Origin: an uncultured Acidobacteriota bacterium
Lineage (GTDB): Bacteria; Acidobacteriota; Blastocatellia; RBC074
Direction of reading: 5' to 3'
DNA length: 64,000 nt
NCBI GenBank assembly: GCA_963796275.1
Contig: CAWCKY010000002.1
Coordinates: forward strand, 416,001 to 480,000
Shown here: positions 714 through 58,112 of the stretch, piece after piece
Numbering within the stretch: position 1 is the stretch's first letter
How the letters are laid out: each line of letters starts with the position of its first letter
Made by a program: the position numbers and the translations under genes
Notes under the pieces: model-generated
Database searches by the model: none
What the model was told of the DNA's origin: nothing
The model's input: the letters and a program-made list of their open reading frames with translations, nothing else

Positions 714-2003
714 ATGTCATTCAATATTCGTGCCTCCCTCTGCGCCATTCTGCTTTTTATAGGTGCAATAAACAGCCAAACGCAAAACGCGCCACGTTCC
801 GAAGTCGCTGGCATTGCGGTCAACTACGATGAGGCTCGAGTAGGTACCTACACGCTACCCGATCCACTGACGCTCAGTAATGGCAAGCCAGTGCGCGACG
901 CACAAACCTGGTACAAAAAGCGCCGCCCTGAGATCGTGCGATTGTTCGAGGAGAATCAGTTTGGCCGCAGTCCGGGGCGCCCCGCAGGAATGCGCTTCGA
1001 GCTATTCGATAAAGGCACCCCCGCCCTCGACGGCAAGGCCATTCGCAGGCAAGTCACAGTCCATTTTTCGTCCGACAAAAACGGGCCTAAGATGGATATG
1101 CTCCTCTACTTGCCGGCCGATGCGAAAAAACCGGTCCCGCTCCTGCTCAATCTAAGTTTCACCGCGAACTCCAACGCCGTTAACGATCCAGGCGTCAAAC
1201 CGGGGGAAATCTGGAACCGCGAAAAGAAGCGCGTGCCGGCGCCTAAGGACGGAAGGTTCGGCCGCCTGAATGTACTGCCGTTTCTGGCGCAGGGCTTCGG
1301 CGTCGCGACGGTATATTACGGCGATATCGATCCCGATTTTCTCGGCGGCATCCCGCACGGCGTGCGCGCCCTCTATCTCAAGCCCGGGCAGACTGAACCC
1401 GGCCCGAATGAATGGGGCGCGATTGGCGCGTGGGCGTGGGGTTTGAGCCGCGCACTCGATTATTTGGAGACCGATCGGAAGGTGGATGCCAAACGCGTCG
1501 CCATCGTGGGCGTGTCCCGACTCGGCAAAACCGTGCTCTGGGCGGGCGCGCACGATCCGCGTTTTGCGATGGTGATTGCCAGTTGTTCCGGCGAAGGCGG
1601 CGCCGCCGTCAGCCGTCGCAATTATGGCGAGACGATCAACCATCTGACGGAGCCGACTCGATATCCGTATCAGTTCTGTGCCAATTATGGAAAGTACGGC
1701 GCCCGCGTCCATGAATTTCCGATAGATGCGCATATGCTGTTGTCATTGATTGCACCGCGGCCCGTGTTGCTGCAAACAGGCGATACCGATGTCTGGTCTG
1801 ATCCGAAAGGCGAATTTCTGGCGGCAGTCGAGGCAGCGCCTGTTTTCAAATTACTCGGCAAACAGGCGCTCGACACCGAGCAAATGCCGGCCGCTGGGCA
1901 GCCGATTCTTCACACGCTCGGCTACATCATGCACGCGGGCGGACACGGCACAATTCCCGCCGATTGGGAACTGTTTCTGAAATTCATGCAGATGCACTTG
2001 TAG
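714..2003 (+). CDS. Secreted CE15-family glucuronoyl esterase / acetylxylan-esterase-like protein
   Basis: Signal peptide; 'GAIGAWAWGLSRALDYL', nucleophile elbow 'GVSRLGK', 'SGEGG', 'IAPRP', 'WSDPKG'. GAGGAG RBS before ATG 714 (alternative start 702). Confidence 0.85.
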   Translation: MSFNIRASLCAILLFIGAINSQTQNAPRSEVAGIAVNYDEARVGTYTLPDPLTLSNGKPVRDAQTWYKKRRPEIVRLFEENQFGRSPGRPAGMRFELFDKGTPALDGKAIRRQVTVHFSSDKNGPKMDMLLYLPADAKKPVPLLLNLSFTANSNAVNDPGVKPGEIWNREKKRVPAPKDGRFGRLNVLPFLAQGFGVATVYYGDIDPDFLGGIPHGVRALYLKPGQTEPGPNEWGAIGAWAWGLSRALDYLETDRKVDAKRVAIVGVSRLGKTVLWAGAHDPRFAMVIASCSGEGGAAVSRRNYGETINHLTEPTRYPYQFCANYGKYGARVHEFPIDAHMLLSLIAPRPVLLQTGDTDVWSDPKGEFLAAVEAAPVFKLLGKQALDTEQMPAAGQPILHTLGYIMHAGGHGTIPADWELFLKFMQMHL

Positions 2004-2058
2004 TAAATATCGATCGTTGGAGTTCGCGATCAATACTTGTCTCAGATACAATTATGGC

Positions 2059-3249
2059 ATGAAACGCACGGGAATCGCAGACCTTCCTCTCCATGGCGGG
2101 CGAGTTCCGCAATGGCTGGCCGAACGAATGACCAGACTTGGCACAGCTATCACGGAAACTATCGTTCGGGACTACGGCACCTCTGCTTTCCTCTCGCGTC
2201 TGAGCGATCCCTTCTGGTTCCAGGCGCTCGGATCTGTGATGGGGATGGACTGGCACTCCTCAGGAATAACCACGTCAGTTATGGGCGCCCTCAAGCGCGG
2301 CCTCGCTTCGCGGGGTGATGAACTCGGCATCTATATCTGCGGCGGCCGCGGAAGATTCTCTCGCCACACGCCGCATGAATTGCGGTCGATCGCCGAGCGT
2401 CGCGGCTTCGATGGCGAGGCGTTGGTCCGCGCCAGCCGGCTCACCGCGCGCGTCGACAACAATGCAATCGCCGACGGGTTTCAGATTTACCTCCACAGTT
2501 TCATCGTCACGTCAAACGGTGAGTGGGCGGTGGTTCAGCAGGGTTTGAATGATGGCAGCGGAATGGCACGCCGTTATCACTGGCACTCGGCTTCTGTCCG
2601 AGATTTCGTCGCCGAACCGCACACTGCAATAGTCGGAGAGAATCAGGGGATAATCATCAACCTCGTAGATGCTCAGGCCAAGCCCATACAGACCGCGATG
2701 CTCGACATCGCTCGCGAGAATCCGGCGACGACTCTGGGCGATGCACGCCATCTCGGCATGCCGCGCCATCACGATGTCCGTCGTGAAAATATCGACCTGA
2801 AACGACTCGGTGCGGTGCTCGCTATCGCATATGAGCGTGATCTCCACGACTTCGCCGAGCTCCTGCTCTTGGAGAAACTGGGTCCGCGCACTCTCCAGTC
2901 GCTCGCCTTGATCGCCGAGGTCGTACACGGCGCGCCAAGCCGCTTCACCGATCCGGCGCGTTTTTCATTTGCACACGGCGGCAAGGATCGCCATCCATTC
3001 CCTGTCCCGCTGAAGACCTACGATGAATCCCTCAATTTCCTCAGAACCTCGCTCGAGGCAGCGAGGATCGGCGATGGAGAGAAACTCGACGGCTTTCGTC
3101 GCCTCGAACGCTTCGCCCGCACGGTCGAAACCGAGCTCGAACCGAAAGCCGATTTCGATGCTGCCATCGCATACGAAAACGCGATCTCTCCCTCGTTCGA
3201 CGGCCGTTCAGTTTTCGACGTCAAACCGAGGCAGGGATCACTTTTCTGA
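2059..3249 (+). CDS. DUF763 family protein
   Basis: 'ADLPLHGGRVPQWL..RM', 'SDPFWFQALGSVMGMDWHSSGITT', 'SFAHGGKDRHPFPV' are characteristic of the family. Confidence 0.88.
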   Translation: MKRTGIADLPLHGGRVPQWLAERMTRLGTAITETIVRDYGTSAFLSRLSDPFWFQALGSVMGMDWHSSGITTSVMGALKRGLASRGDELGIYICGGRGRFSRHTPHELRSIAERRGFDGEALVRASRLTARVDNNAIADGFQIYLHSFIVTSNGEWAVVQQGLNDGSGMARRYHWHSASVRDFVAEPHTAIVGENQGIIINLVDAQAKPIQTAMLDIARENPATTLGDARHLGMPRHHDVRRENIDLKRLGAVLAIAYERDLHDFAELLLLEKLGPRTLQSLALIAEVVHGAPSRFTDPARFSFAHGGKDRHPFPVPLKTYDESLNFLRTSLEAARIGDGEKLDGFRRLERFARTVETELEPKADFDAAIAYENAISPSFDGRSVFDVKPRQGSLF

Positions 3250-50486: not shown

Positions 50487-51235
50487 TCATTCCGCCACGC
50501 TTGTTGCAACGGGTTCTTCTTTGCGCCTTCCAGACAGTAGTTTCTTAGATAAGAGCCCGAGCAGAGGAATCGCAATTATCAGTAGTTTCCAGCTTTTGGC
50601 GAGTAATACCAACAGCAGTTTAAACAGCCCGGCCTTGGCAGCGACTTTGCCGGCGATCAAGGCGCCGATGCCGTATGCAGCAACCTTATCCGCGCCCCCT
50701 ACATAATCGCCGTAACGGTGACCTTCGTTGAATTCGACGAAGGCGAGCACCTGCTGCATATCTTTCTCGACCATTTGCAACTGGCCCATCGATGCGACGG
50801 CATTTAGCGAAAGCACTCCGCGGCGACCCAGCGCACGGATGTCGTAGTTCAATGTGTGCTCAGGGTCTCCGCCAAAGCTCAGTTCCCTTGCCCAGAAAAG
50901 CTTGTGGGAATCCTTGTCGTAACGCGGGGGCGCCGCCCATCCGATCAACTCGACACTGTCATAGCCCTGCTTGGTCCTCTCCTCATTAGCCTCCCAGCTA
51001 CACCGTCCTTGAGCTTGATTTCACCTGTCTGAAACTTCAGCCTTGATACTGTCTCCTCCCGTTTCTTGAATTCCTTGAGCAGCATCTCCGCCTGCTCCGG
51101 GGACAATTGATCTGTTTCGCTCGCCGGATCTTTACCGGATTTCTCCTCTTTCTTTTGCGCGCATACGAAAAGTGGCTGCGGGAGCGTCAAAAGGACCGCG
51201 ACCGTAAAGATCAGACATACGAGGATGTTTTTCAT
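50487..51235 (-). pseudogene. DUF2167 family membrane protein broken by an internal deletion and frameshift
   Basis: 5' part ends 'LKFQTGEIKLKDGVA'. The sequence continues in another frame as 'EANEERTKQGYDSVELIGWAAPPRYD..LNYDIRALGRRGVLSLNAV..DKVAAYGIGALIAG'. Junction at ~50995. Confidence 0.82.
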
Positions 51236-52165: not shown

Positions 52166-55100
52166 CTATTGCCGCCGGCCGTCCAGGTTCGCCCATTCTC
52201 CGGAGTGAATGAATGCCGCCCAGTAAAACGGATGCTGATGCTCCTTGGGCCCGCGAAGCATCTTCAGTTGTACTTGCCTCAATCCCTCGCTTCGCCCTTC
52301 TCCATTTGTGAGGGCTTTGTAGTAGGGAATCATTAAATCTTTGGTCACTTCGTCTGAGACGGGCCAGAGGCTCATCACCTGGCTCTGTGATCCAGCCAGG
52401 ACAAATGCGCGACGCAGCCCCTGCACTCCTTCACCATTCTTCACATCTCCCACACCTGTGTCGCAGGCCGAAAGGACTACCAGTTTGGTACCCGATAAAT
52501 ACAGATAAGCCGCCTCCAGCGCAGTCAACACGCCGTCATCATCTCCTCGCTTTTCGAAATTTGCTCCCGCCAGCGCGAGGCCTGAGCGCAACAATGGATC
52601 TTTGACCCTGGCGAGAGACATTCCGATCCGCAGCTGGGAATCGGGCGCGGTGTAGAGTGCGACGAAGTATTCGCTGGCGAGACCCCTCTCCTGCAGATCG
52701 GCGCCATACTTCTGGGCATCGGCCTGAGTCGGAAAATTTCCGCTCCGTACTCGGAAGAAAATCCTTTTGCCACTCGCCCTCTTTTTTAGAATGTATCCAT
52801 CTACCCCATGAGACCTGAGCCGTTCCACGGCCTCTTGCGCGGTTTCGAGAGCGGGAGTCGCCTCAAGCTGAACTGTGTAACTTTCACCTGTTGCAGCGAT
52901 AAATCCTGATGAACCAGCGTTCTGCGCTTGATTTCCCCCAGATGATGGCTCCTGTTTATTGATGAAGAAACCGTGCGTTGCGATGTGAAGAATTTGCGGC
53001 CCCCTGGTCTGTTTCAACGCCGTCTCTGTTGCGTCATCTCCCTGGAGCACCGATGCGTTAGGGAGCAAGGCTTTGATCGCGAGCGCTTCATCTTCCGTGC
53101 TCGGCAGAGGTTGGAAGAAGAACTGAGACGGACCATCCTGTGATTTCGATCGGTTGCTTCCGCGCGTTTTTCCCTGATCTCTACGTAAGGCGATGGTGGC
53201 GAAGCTGCCGAAGTCAGGATTGGCCACCACCAACGGAGCGTCCTTGCTCGGCTCGGGTGATTGGAGACGCAGCAGGTCACGTCCGCTGGTCAGGTAGCTG
53301 AGAGAGTAGCGCTCGATCAGATATCGATTCTGCTCATCGACCAGGGCGGCAAAAGGGATGAGGTTTAATGCCCCGTCGGGGGAAATCAGCAAATGACGCG
53401 TATCGTTTAGCACTTCACTGATGACCGCCCGCACGGGTCGCATCAATTTCTCATCAACGGCGCGCGCGAGCCGGTTGACGTCGGTCCGGCTCGAATCGCG
53501 CAGCGCATTGCGCCATTCCTCCATTGCCTGATCAATCGGCGCGGCTTCGCCAAGATCTACCCACTTCGGCTCAACTTGAGATGCGAGCACATATGCGATG
53601 TAGTGCGGTTCTCTGCTCTTCCCGGTCTTCGGATCAGACGGCGTGAAGTAGGCGAACTCGACCAGTGAGGTGCTCGTGGGAAGAGCGGCTTGAACGGCGG
53701 CGAGTGTGACCGGCTGAACTTGATTGCGAAACTCGATGCTGCGAGCACTGAGCTTCCCTTCTAAATCATCGACCTCGACTTCGAGTTTTTTCACCCGCGT
53801 CAGATAGGTATCCGGCTTAACCGCATCGGGCACGTTGAGTTTGAGCATTGCCAATTGCGAGCGAGCCGTTATGAGTCTATTGAAGAGCGCTTGAACCTGG
53901 GGGCTAGCGTGCCGGCGCAACGTGGCTATCGTATCGGCCATCGCATCGAGGCCGCGCCCTTTTCGGCATAAGAGAGTCGTTAAAGCCAGATTGAGCGCCC
54001 GCGAATCGTCAGGCGCTGCCTGGCTTTGAAGAGAGAGCGTGAAATCGATCCTTTCCGAAAACTTAGAGACATAAAGCAGTTTCTGGCGTTCGGAGCCGAT
54101 AGCGATAGTGCCGGTGAAGTTCCGTTCTTCTACGGCATTGGAGCGTGAGAGAAAAGAAATAGCCTGCGCGTATTCACCTTTTGCCAACTGCAGCCGGGCG
54201 AGGTCAGCGAGAGATTCAGCGAAATCTTTGTGTTCACTTCCAAGAACTTTTTCCCTGATGCTCAGTGCGCGCGCGAAGAGCGGCTCGGCCTTGGCGAACT
54301 CGCCTCTCACTCGATAGAGGTTGGCAAGATTGTTGAGACTTTGTGCCACTCCCGGATGCTCCGGACCCACCGATCTCTCCCCGATCGCCAGCGCCCGTTG
54401 ATGGAGCGGTTCCGCCTTGGCATATTCGCCTCTATCGCTGTAAAACCTGCCGAGGTTGTCGAGAGTGAGGGCGACAAAGGGATGCTCGGGACCCAGCACC
54501 TTCTCCCTGATTGCCAATGCACGCAGATAAAGCGGCTCTGCCTTAACGTATTCGAGTCTGTCCTTATAGAGATCAGCGAGATTTTCGAGAGGGCGGGCGA
54601 CATCCGGATGTTCTGGCCCCAGAGCTTTCTCCCTGATGGCCACTGCGCGCCTGTAGAGCGGCTCCGCCTTTTCGTAATCACCTCTATTGTAATAGATATT
54701 TGCAAGATTGATCAGTGAAGAAACGGCCTGAGGATGCTCCGGTCCCCATACTTTCAGATCGATGGTCAGTGCGCGTTGAAGCCGCGACTCTGCCTTTGCA
54801 TAGTCATTTGTCGCGCTATAAAGAGCGGCCAGGTTGCTGAGGGCGATAGAAACATTGGGGTGTTCGGCCCCCAGCGCTTTCTCCCAGGTGGTTTGCGCAC
54901 GTTGAAAGAGAGGCTCCGCTTTATCGAACTCGCATCTCTCAAAATAGAGTTTGCCAAAACTGGTAAGAACGGCGGCGACATCCGGATGCTCAGCTCCCAG
55001 CGCTTTCTCATTGATTGTTACTGCACGTTTATACAACTCTTCGGCCTTCGCGAACTCGCCTTTCTCGTTGTAGAGATAGGCAAGGTTGTTGAGGGTGGAG

Positions 55101-55879
55101 GCAACATCCGGGTGTTCCGGCCCTAAGACTTTCTCTCTAATCTTCAAAGCGCGTTGATAGCCTTCCTCCGACTTTTCGAAATCACCCTTGAGATTGAAAA
55201 GGTTCGATAGATTGTTAACTGCAAGAGCTACGTCTGGATGATCCGGTCCTAACGTCTTTTCACGAATCTCCAGTACTCGTTCACCTAATGGGCGCGCTTC
55301 ATCATACCTGCCTTCACGATAAAGTCTGAGAAACTCTGTATTTTGCTTCATCGCTTCGTGCAAGGCGCGGTCTCCATCCGTGGCGACGCCCAACTCCACC
55401 ACTCGAATCCGATATCGGCCGCCCGCCGCATTGCTATATTTTGCCTTTAGACCCAGTCGGTAGCTGCCCTCCTGTTCCGCTACCCAGGATGCGGTCTCCT
55501 CTCCCTCTTTCCTGCGCTCAGAATCAAATTCCGCGATCTGCTTTTTATCGGGCCCGATCAGTTTTAAACCCACGTCGATGCCTCGTTGATCCACAACTAC
55601 CTTAATATATTGATCGGCGGCGAGAGTTATCTCATAGGTATGTGTTTGTCCCCCGGCCAACTCTCGTTCAATCGGTTTGCCCTGTTTGAGTTGTCGAACT
55701 TGCGGATCTTCCTGCGTTACAGTGGCAGGAGAATTGTAGGGCTCAACTCCTTTCTCTGTGGAAAATGTATCCGGAGAACCCTGAATTCGGAAAAGTAGCA
55801 GGCTGATTGTGAACGCGAGTCCGCCGTTGACGAGTCTCAAGCGAAAAGTCGTCCTGGTTGAGGTAGGTGGGAGAACCAT
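52166..55879 (-). CDS. TPR-CHAT (caspase-like cysteine protease) with N-terminal hydrophobic segment, PPC-like domain, nine 42-aa TPR repeats and an internal SPOR domain
   Basis: GGAGG RBS; 'GKPIERELAGGQTHTY' beta domain; 9x 'LG(P/A)EHPxVA'; CHAT 'SPDGALNLIPFAAL', 'YLTSGRDL', 'HIATHGFF', 'LVVLSACDTG', 'SLWPVSD', 'HPFYWAAF'. Confidence 0.92.
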   Translation of the reverse strand: MVLPPTSTRTTFRLRLVNGGLAFTISLLLFRIQGSPDTFSTEKGVEPYNSPATVTQEDPQVRQLKQGKPIERELAGGQTHTYEITLAADQYIKVVVDQRGIDVGLKLIGPDKKQIAEFDSERRKEGEETASWVAEQEGSYRLGLKAKYSNAAGGRYRIRVVELGVATDGDRALHEAMKQNTEFLRLYREGRYDEARPLGERVLEIREKTLGPDHPDVALAVNNLSNLFNLKGDFEKSEEGYQRALKIREKVLGPEHPDVASTLNNLAYLYNEKGEFAKAEELYKRAVTINEKALGAEHPDVAAVLTSFGKLYFERCEFDKAEPLFQRAQTTWEKALGAEHPNVSIALSNLAALYSATNDYAKAESRLQRALTIDLKVWGPEHPQAVSSLINLANIYYNRGDYEKAEPLYRRAVAIREKALGPEHPDVARPLENLADLYKDRLEYVKAEPLYLRALAIREKVLGPEHPFVALTLDNLGRFYSDRGEYAKAEPLHQRALAIGERSVGPEHPGVAQSLNNLANLYRVRGEFAKAEPLFARALSIREKVLGSEHKDFAESLADLARLQLAKGEYAQAISFLSRSNAVEERNFTGTIAIGSERQKLLYVSKFSERIDFTLSLQSQAAPDDSRALNLALTTLLCRKGRGLDAMADTIATLRRHASPQVQALFNRLITARSQLAMLKLNVPDAVKPDTYLTRVKKLEVEVDDLEGKLSARSIEFRNQVQPVTLAAVQAALPTSTSLVEFAYFTPSDPKTGKSREPHYIAYVLASQVEPKWVDLGEAAPIDQAMEEWRNALRDSSRTDVNRLARAVDEKLMRPVRAVISEVLNDTRHLLISPDGALNLIPFAALVDEQNRYLIERYSLSYLTSGRDLLRLQSPEPSKDAPLVVANPDFGSFATIALRRDQGKTRGSNRSKSQDGPSQFFFQPLPSTEDEALAIKALLPNASVLQGDDATETALKQTRGPQILHIATHGFFINKQEPSSGGNQAQNAGSSGFIAATGESYTVQLEATPALETAQEAVERLRSHGVDGYILKKRASGKRIFFRVRSGNFPTQADAQKYGADLQERGLASEYFVALYTAPDSQLRIGMSLARVKDPLLRSGLALAGANFEKRGDDDGVLTALEAAYLYLSGTKLVVLSACDTGVGDVKNGEGVQGLRRAFVLAGSQSQVMSLWPVSDEVTKDLMIPYYKALTNGEGRSEGLRQVQLKMLRGPKEHQHPFYWAAFIHSGEWANLDGRRQ

Positions 55880-56411
55880 GCCAATGCCTCCTTTAGCGGT
55901 AAATTTGAGTTTTTGCTAACTGGGGCACGTATCTACTTGGGAGAGTTCGATTTGGGAGGCTGAGAGATGGAAACTGAAAAACACTCCGCTCTTAACTATT
56001 TAACTCAATTGTTTTCAGCCTTTTGATTATCCTCCCTTTAACAAGTGACAAATTTGTTGAGCACGTATCGGCGAATCGTACGTCTACCTGAATTAGGTTC
56101 GAACAGATCAGTAATATTTTCTAACTCTCGGGATTTCAGATGGCGGCACTGCGAAAAAGGAGTTTCGAAAATTCGCCACATTGATAGCAAAATTGAAACG
56201 CGAATTATCGCGAATTATTTGGTATAGAACTTGTTAGGTGATGTTCGGTTTCTTCCAACCCCCTCCAATAGCGGTATGTGAGGTTCATCAATCGGCCGCA
56301 CGTATCTCTCGTATACCCAAAACCTATATCAATAGATAGGTGCGAGATTGGCTCGCTCGAGAAGAAGTCTGTTCATTTCAACACTCAATTTAACTAGGTA
56401 GGAGGACCGCA

Positions 56412-58112
56412 ATGAAAAACCAGTGCCCTGAGAAAAGTTCATCAGACCAACCCGATAGTAAGCGCGAAATTGAATCACCCGGTCGTCGTCAGTTTCTATC
56501 GGCTGCCGGAGGGTTCACAGCGGCAACATTTGCAACCGGTGAGGTGGGGTTGTCATCGCTGACCGGAGCTACCGACAGGGTAGCGGAACCACCACCTCAG
56601 TCGACACCGACGCCTTTACAGATGCGCCGTGCGCGTGCTTTGGAAATACGAAACAAGGCAGCCAACTTTCAATTAAGCCAGGACTTTCCGGTCCCTCAAA
56701 ATAATGGAGACGAGGATAGATTCCCGCTCGGATTGGCGAGTTTTAGCAAGGCGCTACCTCATAATAAATTAGGCGAAGTCGATCAAGCCGCGTATAGGAA
56801 GCTATTACAGGCTGTCAACAGTGGTCGGGCATCGGATTTTGCTCAGATCCCGCTTGCTGGAACTACCAGACTCGCCAACCCGCAGTGCGCATTCGCCTTC
56901 GAAATGGAGGGGGCAGACCCACACTCTCTTACCGTCGAGGCGCCTCCAAGCTTTACGTCCGAAGAGTTCGCAGGAGAAATGGTCGAATGCTATTGGCTCG
57001 CATTGACGCGCGATATCCCATTTTCACAGTATGGCAATGAGCCCCTGACCGCAGCAGCGATCGATGATCTGAGGCGGTTCCCGGAATTTGCGAATGTCAA
57101 TCCCGGAAATCTGTTCCGCGCCGATATCCCGGGCGTTCAAACCGGCCCGTATCTCTCGCAATTCCTGCTTCAGCCCTACACCTTCGGTTCCACCATTATG
57201 GAGCAGCGTTACCGCACATCTCTCAAGGGGGTCGACCATGTGACCTCCTATCAAACCTGGCTCGATATACAGAACGGTATTGCTTCGGGATCCGATGTCT
57301 TAGATGATACTCTGAGTTACATTCGTGACGGTCGCGTCCTGGGGGAATGGGTACATCGCAACTTCCCGTATCAGGCTGCCCTCATCGCGGCGCTCATCCT
57401 ATTGGGTTATGGCAATGATGCGCTCGACGACGCCAATCCATACAAGAGTCCTACGAATCAATTGGGATTTGCCACTTTCGGCGCACCTCATCTCCTTGAC
57501 CTCATCGCACGCGTTTCAAATCACGCGCTTAAAGCGGCGTATTATCAGAAATGGGCGGTTCATCGCCGCATCCGCCCCGAAGAGTTCGCAGGGCGTATCC
57601 ATAACCATATGACAGGCGCAGCTCAATATGAGCTCAACTCGAAACTGCTCGACTCGGCGGCGCTCTCATCTCTATTCAGCAAAAACGGAACTTACCTATG
57701 CCCGCAAGCTTTTCCCGAAGGCTGCCCGACGCACCCATCTTATCCCGGTGGTAATGCGACGTTCACGGCCGCCGGCGTAACCATGCTCAAAGCCTTCTTC
57801 AACGAAAACTTCGTGATCCCGAACCCGGTCGTCCCGAGCGAAGATGGATTGTCGTTGCTTCCGTGGACGGGTGATCCTCTGACTGTCGGCAATGAATTGA
57901 ACAAGCTGGTTTTTAATGCCGCTTTCGGTCGAAATACAGCGGGAGTACATTATAGGAGAGACGAAGTTCGCGGAATCTTGCTCGGCGAGACATCGGCTAT
58001 CAGCGTGGCGACCGATTTCAACGCGACATACAACGAAAGTTATCCCGGATTCAGCCTGACGACATTTGATGGAACTCCCACAACTCTGAGCACAAATCCA
58101 GTCCTTCTGTGA
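56412..58112 (+). CDS. Tat-exported vanadium-dependent bromoperoxidase-like protein (algal/cyanobacterial VBPO type)
   Basis: AGGAGG RBS; 'GRRQFL'; 'FSKALPHN..GEVD', 'GPYLSQFL', 'KAAYYQKW.VHRRIRPE', 'EGCPTHPSYPGGNA', 'GRNTAGVHYRRD'. Confidence 0.88.
   Translation: MKNQCPEKSSSDQPDSKREIESPGRRQFLSAAGGFTAATFATGEVGLSSLTGATDRVAEPPPQSTPTPLQMRRARALEIRNKAANFQLSQDFPVPQNNGDEDRFPLGLASFSKALPHNKLGEVDQAAYRKLLQAVNSGRASDFAQIPLAGTTRLANPQCAFAFEMEGADPHSLTVEAPPSFTSEEFAGEMVECYWLALTRDIPFSQYGNEPLTAAAIDDLRRFPEFANVNPGNLFRADIPGVQTGPYLSQFLLQPYTFGSTIMEQRYRTSLKGVDHVTSYQTWLDIQNGIASGSDVLDDTLSYIRDGRVLGEWVHRNFPYQAALIAALILLGYGNDALDDANPYKSPTNQLGFATFGAPHLLDLIARVSNHALKAAYYQKWAVHRRIRPEEFAGRIHNHMTGAAQYELNSKLLDSAALSSLFSKNGTYLCPQAFPEGCPTHPSYPGGNATFTAAGVTMLKAFFNENFVIPNPVVPSEDGLSLLPWTGDPLTVGNELNKLVFNAAFGRNTAGVHYRRDEVRGILLGETSAISVATDFNATYNESYPGFSLTTFDGTPTTLSTNPVLL

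Follow-up and report, generated by a model that had tools for sequence, protein, structure and literature searches.

A SPOR domain nested between the catalytic residues of a TPR-CHAT protein from an uncultured acidobacterium

The SPOR-CHAT gene and its domain layout

We analyzed a window of 64,000 nucleotides (nt) from an uncultured soil acidobacterium (contig CAWCKY010000002.1, positions 416,001 to 480,000 of the forward strand); the genome to which it belongs, labelled G000 below, measures 9.46 Mb and is 94.7% complete. The gene under study is an intact open reading frame (ORF) on the minus strand, 52166..55879, which translates into a protein of 1237 amino acids (aa) (P0001). From Pfam matches and reading of the sequence, its domain order is a Sec-type signal peptide, a weak PPC-like domain, a TPR array, a helical region and a CHAT domain that carries a SPOR domain inside it. 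CHAT proteases are bacterial cousins of caspases and separase, and the SPOR domain lies nested between the two residues of the catalytic dyad, His969 and Cys1139, which are 170 residues apart. A first-pass annotation, made from the letters of the window alone, had placed a linker-flanked, in-frame insert between the catalytic His and Cys. The CHAT profile is interrupted precisely there, and the ORF, both catalytic codon positions and the insert translation had been given exactly. The features of the gene, in the direction of transcription, are as follows.

55887..55892, minus strand: Shine-Dalgarno sequence AGGAGG, 7 nt 5' of the ATG at 55879, read from the sequence
55778..55879, minus strand: predicted signal peptide of Sec type, residues 1-34, recognized by reading the sequence
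55448..55648, minus strand: candidate PPC-like beta-sandwich, residues 78-144; Pfam match below cut-off, a hint only
54080..55312, minus strand: TPR array, residues ~190-600; TPR_12 with 378.7 bits in 8 stretches, TPR_10 in 9 stretches
53474..54079, minus strand: residues ~601-802, helical and without a family match, linking the TPR array to CHAT
52940..53473, minus strand: N-terminal half of CHAT; PF12770 positions 2-162, E 1.1e-37 (G000:C2:468940-469473)
52973..52975, minus strand: codon of catalytic His969, the 'THG' in 'HIATHG'; position computed
52886..52963, minus strand: N-linker, residues 973-998, rich in Gly, Ser, Gln and Asn; low model confidence, low identity
52652..52885, minus strand: SPOR insert, residues 999-1076, 78 aa; PF05036, beta-alpha-beta-beta-alpha-beta
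52604..52651, minus strand: C-linker, residues 1077-1092; low model confidence
52196..52603, minus strand: C-terminal half of CHAT with the catalytic Cys; PF12770 positions 156-289, E 2.3e-43 (G000:C2:468196-468603)
52463..52465, minus strand: codon of catalytic Cys1139, in 'LSACDTG'; position computed

Sequence and predicted fold of the insert and of the CHAT domain

Searched alone against the SPOR family PF05036, the insert scored 43.9 bits (E 3.1e-11; cut-off 21), and within the whole protein the match reached 39.7 bits over residues 999-1067, against the same cut-off. A search of the PDB with the insert as a single sequence returned no SPOR chain (best E 0.19). When eight SPOR sequences from G000 were combined into a profile, the PDB search reached CwlC (E 7.6e-6), DamX (0.039) and DedD (0.38). 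The predicted secondary structure, in the numbering of a modelled fragment that starts at residue 780, consists of strand 221-229, helix 232-244, strands 250-255 and 261-270, helix 273-285 and strand 292-297, so that the beta-alpha-beta-beta-alpha-beta order of the ribonucleoprotein (RNP)-like SPOR fold is present in the model. Superposition of fragment residues 221-297 on the SPOR domain of RlpA (6i05) gave Z 10.1 at 2.3 Å over 75 of 76 residues; the same stretch matched the CwlC SPOR domain with Z 9.9. By its PF05036 score and its predicted fold, the insert is a real SPOR domain, as the first-pass annotation had proposed.

The surrounding CHAT domain was recovered by PF12770 with 278.4 bits in two stretches (cut-off 24). 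The N-terminal half stops just past the catalytic His. In a profile search of the genome the CHAT profile split at positions ~155-162, exactly around the SPOR match, and the same split was found in three further intact genes of G000. A first AlphaFold2 model, built from 82 close homologues, had a predicted local distance difference test (pLDDT) of 54 overall and of 84-95 for the insert, with CHAT poorly modelled. A second model, based on a trimmed and diverse alignment (A5; 84 rows) to which distant CHAT paralogues of G000 had been added, reached a pLDDT of 84.8 and a predicted template modelling score of 0.77. In this second model the CHAT part matched Csx29 with Z 21.8 (3.1 Å, 266 residues), separase with Z ~20, DdvA with Z 18.5 (3.4 Å, 249 residues) and gingipains with Z about 17-18 (17.9 for one); the match of the model to caspase-9 had Z 10.2. 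The CHAT domain is thus of the caspase, separase and Craspase type in its predicted fold. The first 44 residues of the model (780-823) are helical; a Pfam scan of window positions 53400-54100 gave no significant family. A search of the protein Atlas returned generic CHAT clusters only, at 0.88-0.89.

Conservation of the insert and of its linkers

For residue conservation we used an alignment of 82 sequences, comprising the window's protein and 81 of the 97 insert-bearing proteins found in databases (see below); the other 16, mostly fragments or proteins close to rows already included, were omitted. Gln1004, Phe/Tyr1042, Arg1043, Gly1047 and the catalytic Cys1139 are present in all 82 sequences, and Ala/Ser1007 in 81 of them. 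According to Alcorlo et al. 2019, the glycan-binding sheet of FtsN carries residues Q251, S254, W283, R285 and I313; in RlpA, the homologues of Q251 and R285 are Q270 and R309, and the S254 position is occupied by A273 (excerpts of PMC6895207). Gln1004 pairs with the beta-1 Gln of DamX and FtsN in alignments. One placement of the FtsN SPOR domain, by MAFFT, was rejected; it had been put on the wrong half of the insert, owing to the internal repeat of SPOR. Because the alignments to FtsN are unreliable, we claim residue equivalence for the beta-1 Gln only.

In the same alignment the mean pairwise identity is 64% for SPOR and 70% and 85% for the two CHAT halves, compared with 33% for the N-linker and 57% for the C-linker region (fragment residues 298-314). 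The linkers fall below a pLDDT of 50 at fragment residues 207-218 and 301-305, respectively. The spacing between the catalytic His and Cys ranges from 167 to 217 residues in insert-bearing relatives and from 80 to 101 in insert-less ones. Judged from these sequences, the SPOR insert is maintained under purifying conservation like a working domain, and the N-linker like a spacer.

Distribution of the nested architecture

Residues 780-1237 were used to collect relatives. Among the 119 best database proteins, with identities of 54-91%, the insert is present in 97. Most of the 119 come from JGI metagenomes, and the three that carry NCBI names are assigned to 'Blastocatellia bacterium' (two) and 'Acidobacteria bacterium'. 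The insert-bearing database proteins are annotated as CHAT or TPR proteins only. At 50% clustering, 5 of the 150 best representatives have the insert, and the number of CHAT relatives at E <= 1e-10 is 70,066. Rarity is not supported in this respect: the design is common within one narrow, Blastocatellia-like lineage.

At the level of the family, the SPOR subtype of the insert occurs in a frame of CHAT size only in G000 and G262, out of 87 species genomes. As a free-standing domain, the subtype was matched in 70 of the other 86 genomes of the family; this free-standing form is a likely donor family of the insert. Across 301 genomes of the class, with up to 11 candidates scored per genome, a His-to-Cys match that spans the insert was found only in G000 and G262 among the matches listed (150 of 424); in G264 there was one partial match, to query residues 49-186, in a 1274-aa frame. 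Note that these tallies take in genomes flagged as unpublished, namely G244 (family and class searches) and G199 (class search). A contig search with residues 927-1237 gave 11 loci, every match being too short for the insert.

In G000 itself, the free-standing subtype is represented by the gene at C6:539561-540781 (L064). Its product has a classic signal peptide directly before the SPOR domain, followed by a Pro/Ala-rich linker and a domain of ~170 aa that has no Pfam match. The SPOR domain of this protein shares 46% identity with the insert (52% in another alignment) and scores 112.7 bits against the insert region of a CHAT+SPOR hidden Markov model (HMM) and 46.5 bits against Pfam SPOR. The subtype also occurs in a different setting, at residues 494-566 of an 818-aa protein (L082; G091:C32, ORF 772-3225, minus strand) with a twin-arginine translocation (TAT) signal and GFO/IDH/MocA oxidoreductase domains, another unusual fusion of an enzyme with SPOR.

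G000 has four intact SPOR-CHAT copies: the window's gene, C1:1217786-1221328, C3:621518-625072 and C3:1544447-1547218. A fifth copy, C6:1194097-1196652, is broken into at least five ORF pieces (250, 172, 325, 142 and 126 aa). It is 57-77% identical to the intact copies over three CHAT/SPOR pieces and is either a pseudogene or the product of an assembly frameshift. In all, the genome contains about 27 full-length CHAT paralogues (31 CHAT ORF pieces). Five insert-less TPR-CHAT ORFs, two of them short (618 and 304 aa), form a tandem array on one strand at C6:1727413-1740906.

The loop that receives the insert is bimodal in length in an alignment of 144 rows, with at most 46 residues in 110 rows and at least 116 in the other 34. 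In a quick tree of the 144 CHAT cores, computed with FastTree after removal of the insert columns, all 34 insert-bearing rows fall into one clade of 41 rows, alongside seven insert-less rows. The insert state changes at least four times on this tree, three of the changes being forced by well-supported branches. A single gain of the insert followed by losses is a possible reading of these sequences.

Predicted export

Residues 1-34 consist of a basic n-region and a 12-residue h-region, GGLAFTISLLLF, followed by 'IQG/SP' (read by eye; the slash marks the apparent cleavage site). The n-h-c pattern, with 'IQA/SP', recurs in nearly all full-length relatives, insert-bearing or not, and an n-h-c signal pattern is also found in most CHAT paralogues of G000. 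The hydrophobic, export-like segment that had been noticed at the N-terminus in the first pass is real and kept in relatives. After the signal comes the PPC-like domain (PF04151; E 0.0016 and 19.7 bits, short of the 25.9-bit cut-off), which fits an extracytoplasmic protein, the match being weak. Because the Sec-type signal peptide pattern is conserved, the protein is likely to be exported and to reside in the periplasm, as had been suggested, or elsewhere outside the cytoplasm.

It is highly improbable that the protein is cytoplasmic, with an N-terminal stretch that is no export signal and a SPOR domain that is a fold relic without a wall ligand: the TPR-CHAT units of Craspase and separase are cytoplasmic (excerpts of PMC11506125), but here insert-bearing and insert-less relatives alike keep the tripartite signal with its AxA-like site, SPOR domains work outside the cytoplasm (excerpts of PMC6895207), and the proteins related to the insert bear signal peptides or TAT signals.

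Sigma- and anti-sigma-like genes beside CHAT paralogues

A protein of ~190 aa and a single-pass membrane protein of ~330 aa recur beside the other SPOR-CHAT copies. The ~190-aa protein, over nearly its full length, matches models of extracytoplasmic function (ECF) sigma factors (TIGR02989, E 4.6e-10; TIGR02937, 30.5 bits, cut-off 42.9). At two paralogue loci the sigma-like proteins also weakly match the NCBIfam model 'type III-E CRISPR-associated RpoE-like sigma factor' (E 1.2e-5 for one, 0.0092 for the other). The ~330-aa membrane protein has a weak match to anti-sigma models. All sigma and anti-sigma matches are below the curated cut-offs.

Of the 10 sigma-like ORFs in G000, 8 have a CHAT ORF within 2.5 kb, compared with an expectation of 2.7% from the share of the genome that lies so close to one; the same is true of 7 of 11 anti-sigma-like ORFs. 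Since the sigma-like family was seeded from two CHAT neighbours, the independent count is 6 of 8. Sigma/anti-sigma-like pairs adjoin three of the other four SPOR-CHAT loci (three intact, one broken), not the window's gene, and they also adjoin several insert-less CHAT paralogues. In G262, a sigma-like ORF and an anti-sigma-like one come after the SPOR-CHAT gene. In metagenomes, 11 SPOR-CHAT genes were found on 10 contigs, one of which has a sigma-like gene, most having less than 2 kb of downstream sequence. Examples of the module are C1:1221207-1223095, C3:643802-645481, C4:627250-629054, C4:988193-989899 and C7:970575-972263. This recurrent module of CHAT, ECF-sigma-like and anti-sigma-like genes resembles the DdvA/DdvS arrangement in split form, and it suggests that Acidobacteriota may more widely subject anti-sigma factors to caspase-like site-1 proteolysis.

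Two other CHAT paralogues of G000 have N-termini of a related kind. The product of C1:218056-221847 carries a fused anti-sigma-like N-terminus (65 bits against an anti-sigma-like HMM), with a sigma-like gene 33 nt upstream, and that of C4:484655-488269 has at its start a motif rich in Cys and His that, by eye, is zf-HC2-like. Going by their sequences, both are DdvA-like fused forms.

Comparison with known systems

The triggers of CHAT proteases recognized so far are an RNA-guided complex (Craspase) or cyclic nucleotides (SAVED-CHAT), or else are unknown. To our knowledge, DdvA is the only periplasmic CHAT protein that has been studied. DdvA is a periplasmic TPR-CHAT anti-sigma factor whose activating signal is called elusive by its authors (excerpts of PMC11506125). 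The window's protein resembles it as a predicted extracytoplasmic TPR-CHAT protein with a His-Cys dyad and, in the model, by the match of Z 18.5; moreover, DdvA belongs to a circuit of ECF sigma and anti-sigma factors, and ECF-sigma-like and anti-sigma-like genes adjoin paralogues of the window's gene. In contrast to the window's protein, DdvA is itself the anti-sigma factor, with a cytoplasmic zinc domain and a membrane helix, and its His and Cys are 45 residues apart with no SPOR, compared with 170 and a SPOR nested inside. The window's protein begins with a signal peptide that looks cleavable and lacks a membrane anchor, and its gene has no sigma gene close by; no zf-HC2 or anti-sigma match was found in it, its N-terminus being the 34-residue signal-like segment followed by the PPC-like domain.

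Csx29 of the type III-E Craspase, the best structural match, has the same order of TPR and then CHAT and is allosterically gated. Its output involves a sigma factor, and the CHAT-adjacent sigma-like proteins of G000 weakly match the type III-E sigma model. Unlike the window's protein, Csx29 is cytoplasmic, is RNA-guided through Cas7-11 and has no wall-binding domain. The association of Craspase with Cas7-11/gRAMP and Csx30 was not seen here, a scan of 15 ORFs around the window's gene having shown no cas genes.

HetF of Anabaena is the founding CHAT protease. It is a component of the divisome that reaches the septum by binding FtsI (excerpts of PMC8406250). HetF provides a case of a CHAT protease at the division septum, with another architecture, without SPOR and with a route to the septum that does not use a wall-binding domain.

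By Pfam, profile and predicted fold, the insert is the same SPOR domain as in FtsN, DamX, DedD, RlpA and CwlC. The solved SPOR domains of CwlC, RlpA, DamX and DedD sit at or near the end of the protein. In those four proteins SPOR is an independent module, whereas in the window's protein it is nested in the catalytic domain of a protease.

Full-text literature searches, which covered few subscription journals, returned no description of a SPOR domain nested in CHAT, in line with the earlier remark that no such protein was known. The nearest precedent is Bradyrhizobium A5ECX2, a secreted Peptidase_C14 caspase with C-terminal YARHG repeats that was noted bioinformatically in 2012 (excerpts of PMC3355149). 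Like the window's protein, A5ECX2 joins a caspase-fold protease with a signal peptide to a putative peptidoglycan-binding module; it differs in being a terminal fusion of another wall-binding domain to a C14 caspase. The protein would belong to a known kind, the extracytoplasmic TPR-CHAT proteases, with the nested SPOR as the feature not found in these searches.

Proposed role of the nested SPOR domain

The reading that we prefer, and hold with about even confidence, is that of a periplasmic TPR-CHAT protease tethered by its nested SPOR domain to denuded glycan. The protein would be exported by Sec to the periplasm, where the SPOR domain, held on two flexible linkers in a naturally variable loop just after His969, would bind peptide-stripped glycan strands of the septal or remodelled wall. 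Binding would tether or concentrate the protease, so that cleavage of its substrate would be confined to septal or remodelling sites. By analogy with other TPR-CHAT proteases, the TPR array may be where the substrate or a regulator docks. As to the substrate, the ECF-linked paralogues, DdvA and Craspase would suggest that it could be an anti-sigma factor in the membrane or some other protein of the envelope. We prefer a tether to rigid coupling because the linkers are variable, long and of low confidence and the His-Cys spacing varies over 167-217 residues, because the SPOR domain is otherwise unchanged relative to its free-standing relatives, and because HetF offers a precedent for septal CHAT proteolysis.

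Several observations count against a wall-tethered protease. The catalytic His969 is kept in 80 of the 82 aligned sequences and is replaced by Arg in the other two. The export call rests on a signal peptide read by hand. Arg1043 and Phe1042 are presumed to correspond to R285 and W283 of FtsN from their position in the motif, and a global pairwise alignment to FtsN was weak (score -10, compared with -28 ± 10 for shuffles; z 1.8). No match to Amidase_3 (AmiA/B/C-type) was found in the 94.7%-complete G000 genome, a point that also weighs on the sensor alternative set out below. Finally, no sigma- or anti-sigma-like gene or other recurring partner was found within 10 kb of the window's gene, and the substrate of the window's copy is therefore a guess.

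An alternative that we regard as unlikely, yet worth setting out, is that the nested SPOR domain is a ligand sensor and not merely an anchor. Here, binding of stripped or damaged glycan would pull the His969 loop, align the dyad and so activate the protease; the activated enzyme would perhaps act as site-1 protease on a membrane anti-sigma factor and release an ECF sigma factor. The insert is anchored immediately past the catalytic His, and the dyads of TPR-CHAT proteases rest in a misaligned state that needs an allosteric trigger, which for the CHAT of DdvA is unknown (excerpts of PMC11506125). The association of sigma- and anti-sigma-like ORFs with CHAT ORFs (8 of 10 and 7 of 11 within 2.5 kb), the pairs at three of the other four SPOR-CHAT loci and in G262, and the nearly full-length matches to ECF models, including the type III-E CRISPR-associated one, speak for this alternative. 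However, linkers that vary in length and are poorly conserved and of low confidence are ill suited to transmit force or shape, and the window's gene lacks such neighbours within 10 kb. A sigma-like gene lies beside SPOR-CHAT on only 1 of the 10 metagenome contigs, though most of these extend for less than 2 kb past the gene. None of the sigma and anti-sigma assignments reaches the curated cut-off, and the independent sigma count is 6 of 8. If the sensor reading were true, glycan exposed by division, by lytic attack from phage or competitors or by wall stress would license anti-sigma cleavage, and the system would be a split, peptidoglycan-sensing version of the logic of DdvA/DdvS and of Craspase/Csx30/RpoE, leading from cell-wall state through caspase-like site-1 proteolysis to an ECF sigma programme. 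Switching-on by denuded or damaged peptidoglycan had been one of the options in the first-pass annotation, but the linkers fit a tether better. The first-pass annotation had also suggested cell death as an output; nothing in the analysis points to it.

It is distinctly unlikely that the protein is an extracellular scavenging or antagonistic protease, which would be released, dock through SPOR on stripped wall debris or on the walls of others and degrade the proteins associated with them. Such a role would suit the signal peptide and the PPC-like domain, a type common in secreted peptidases according to its Pfam description; secreted caspase-fold proteases exist, as the gingipain match of Z 17.9 recalls, and a large genome of 9.46 Mb with about 27 full-length CHAT paralogues could accommodate it. 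On the other hand, the known TPR-CHAT enzymes are specific, regulated proteases (excerpts of PMC11506125), the PPC match is below cut-off and no secretion-system gene recurs beside the paralogues. The sigma/anti-sigma association of the family points instead to signalling.

We consider it very unlikely that the insert has kept the SPOR fold and given up peptidoglycan, serving instead as a protein-interaction module, as a lid or pseudo-substrate of the active site, or as a removable pro-segment. The RNP-like fold is versatile, a place beside the active site would suit a lid and the flexible linkers could be cleavage sites. The putative glycan-contact residues are, however, invariant in SPOR-CHAT proteins, and the identity of 46-52% to the free-standing signal-peptide-SPOR protein, whose subtype is matched in 70 of 86 other genomes of the family, argues for an unchanged ligand.

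Under the preferred reading, of a protease tethered to denuded glycan, as under that of a sensor, a conserved, multi-copy design puts a domain of defined ligand specificity (denuded peptidoglycan) beside a catalytic His. It offers those who study envelope proteolysis a direct handle on how a caspase-like protease of the envelope might be localised or gated, and through it regulated proteolysis may be coupled to cell-wall state.

Neighbouring genes and further observations

The upstream motif 'GGIGM', obtained when the translation is extended past the start, is also present in paralogues, a recurrence that may reflect a conserved ribosome-binding site plus start codon. A scan for promoter and terminator consensus sequences performed no better than on shuffles.

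The window's SPOR-CHAT gene is followed after 22 nt by deoC. Its other neighbours encode DUF2167, PAP2-like, YCII, DUF1501 and PSCyt/DUF1549/DUF1553 proteins. An all-against-all BLAST of the ±10 kb regions at five SPOR-CHAT loci revealed no neighbour in common with the window's locus; shared paralogues of the carboxypeptidase-regulatory/outer-membrane barrel kind were considered as partners of the window's gene and taken as chance.

The DUF2167 gene (window 50487-51235, minus strand) is seemingly split. A 153-aa ORF at 50487-50948 covers only positions 109-237 of the 238 in the DUF2167 profile, and a 96-aa ORF overlapping it upstream, at 50945-51235, has a signal-peptide-like start and no Pfam match; a frameshift is possible. 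Divergent from the CHAT gene lies an ORF of 566 aa (window 56412-58112, plus strand), whose product starts with a TAT-like 'RRQFLSAAGG' and has a weak PAP2 match (18.4 bits, below cut-off).

Among wall enzymes, G000 has three Amidase_2 and two SpoIID matches. At C1:580983-583340, an FtsN-like SPOR gene has one of the Amidase_2 matches ~0.9 kb downstream of it; the product of this SPOR gene combines a zinc-ribbon-like N-terminus with a membrane helix and ends in a SPOR domain.

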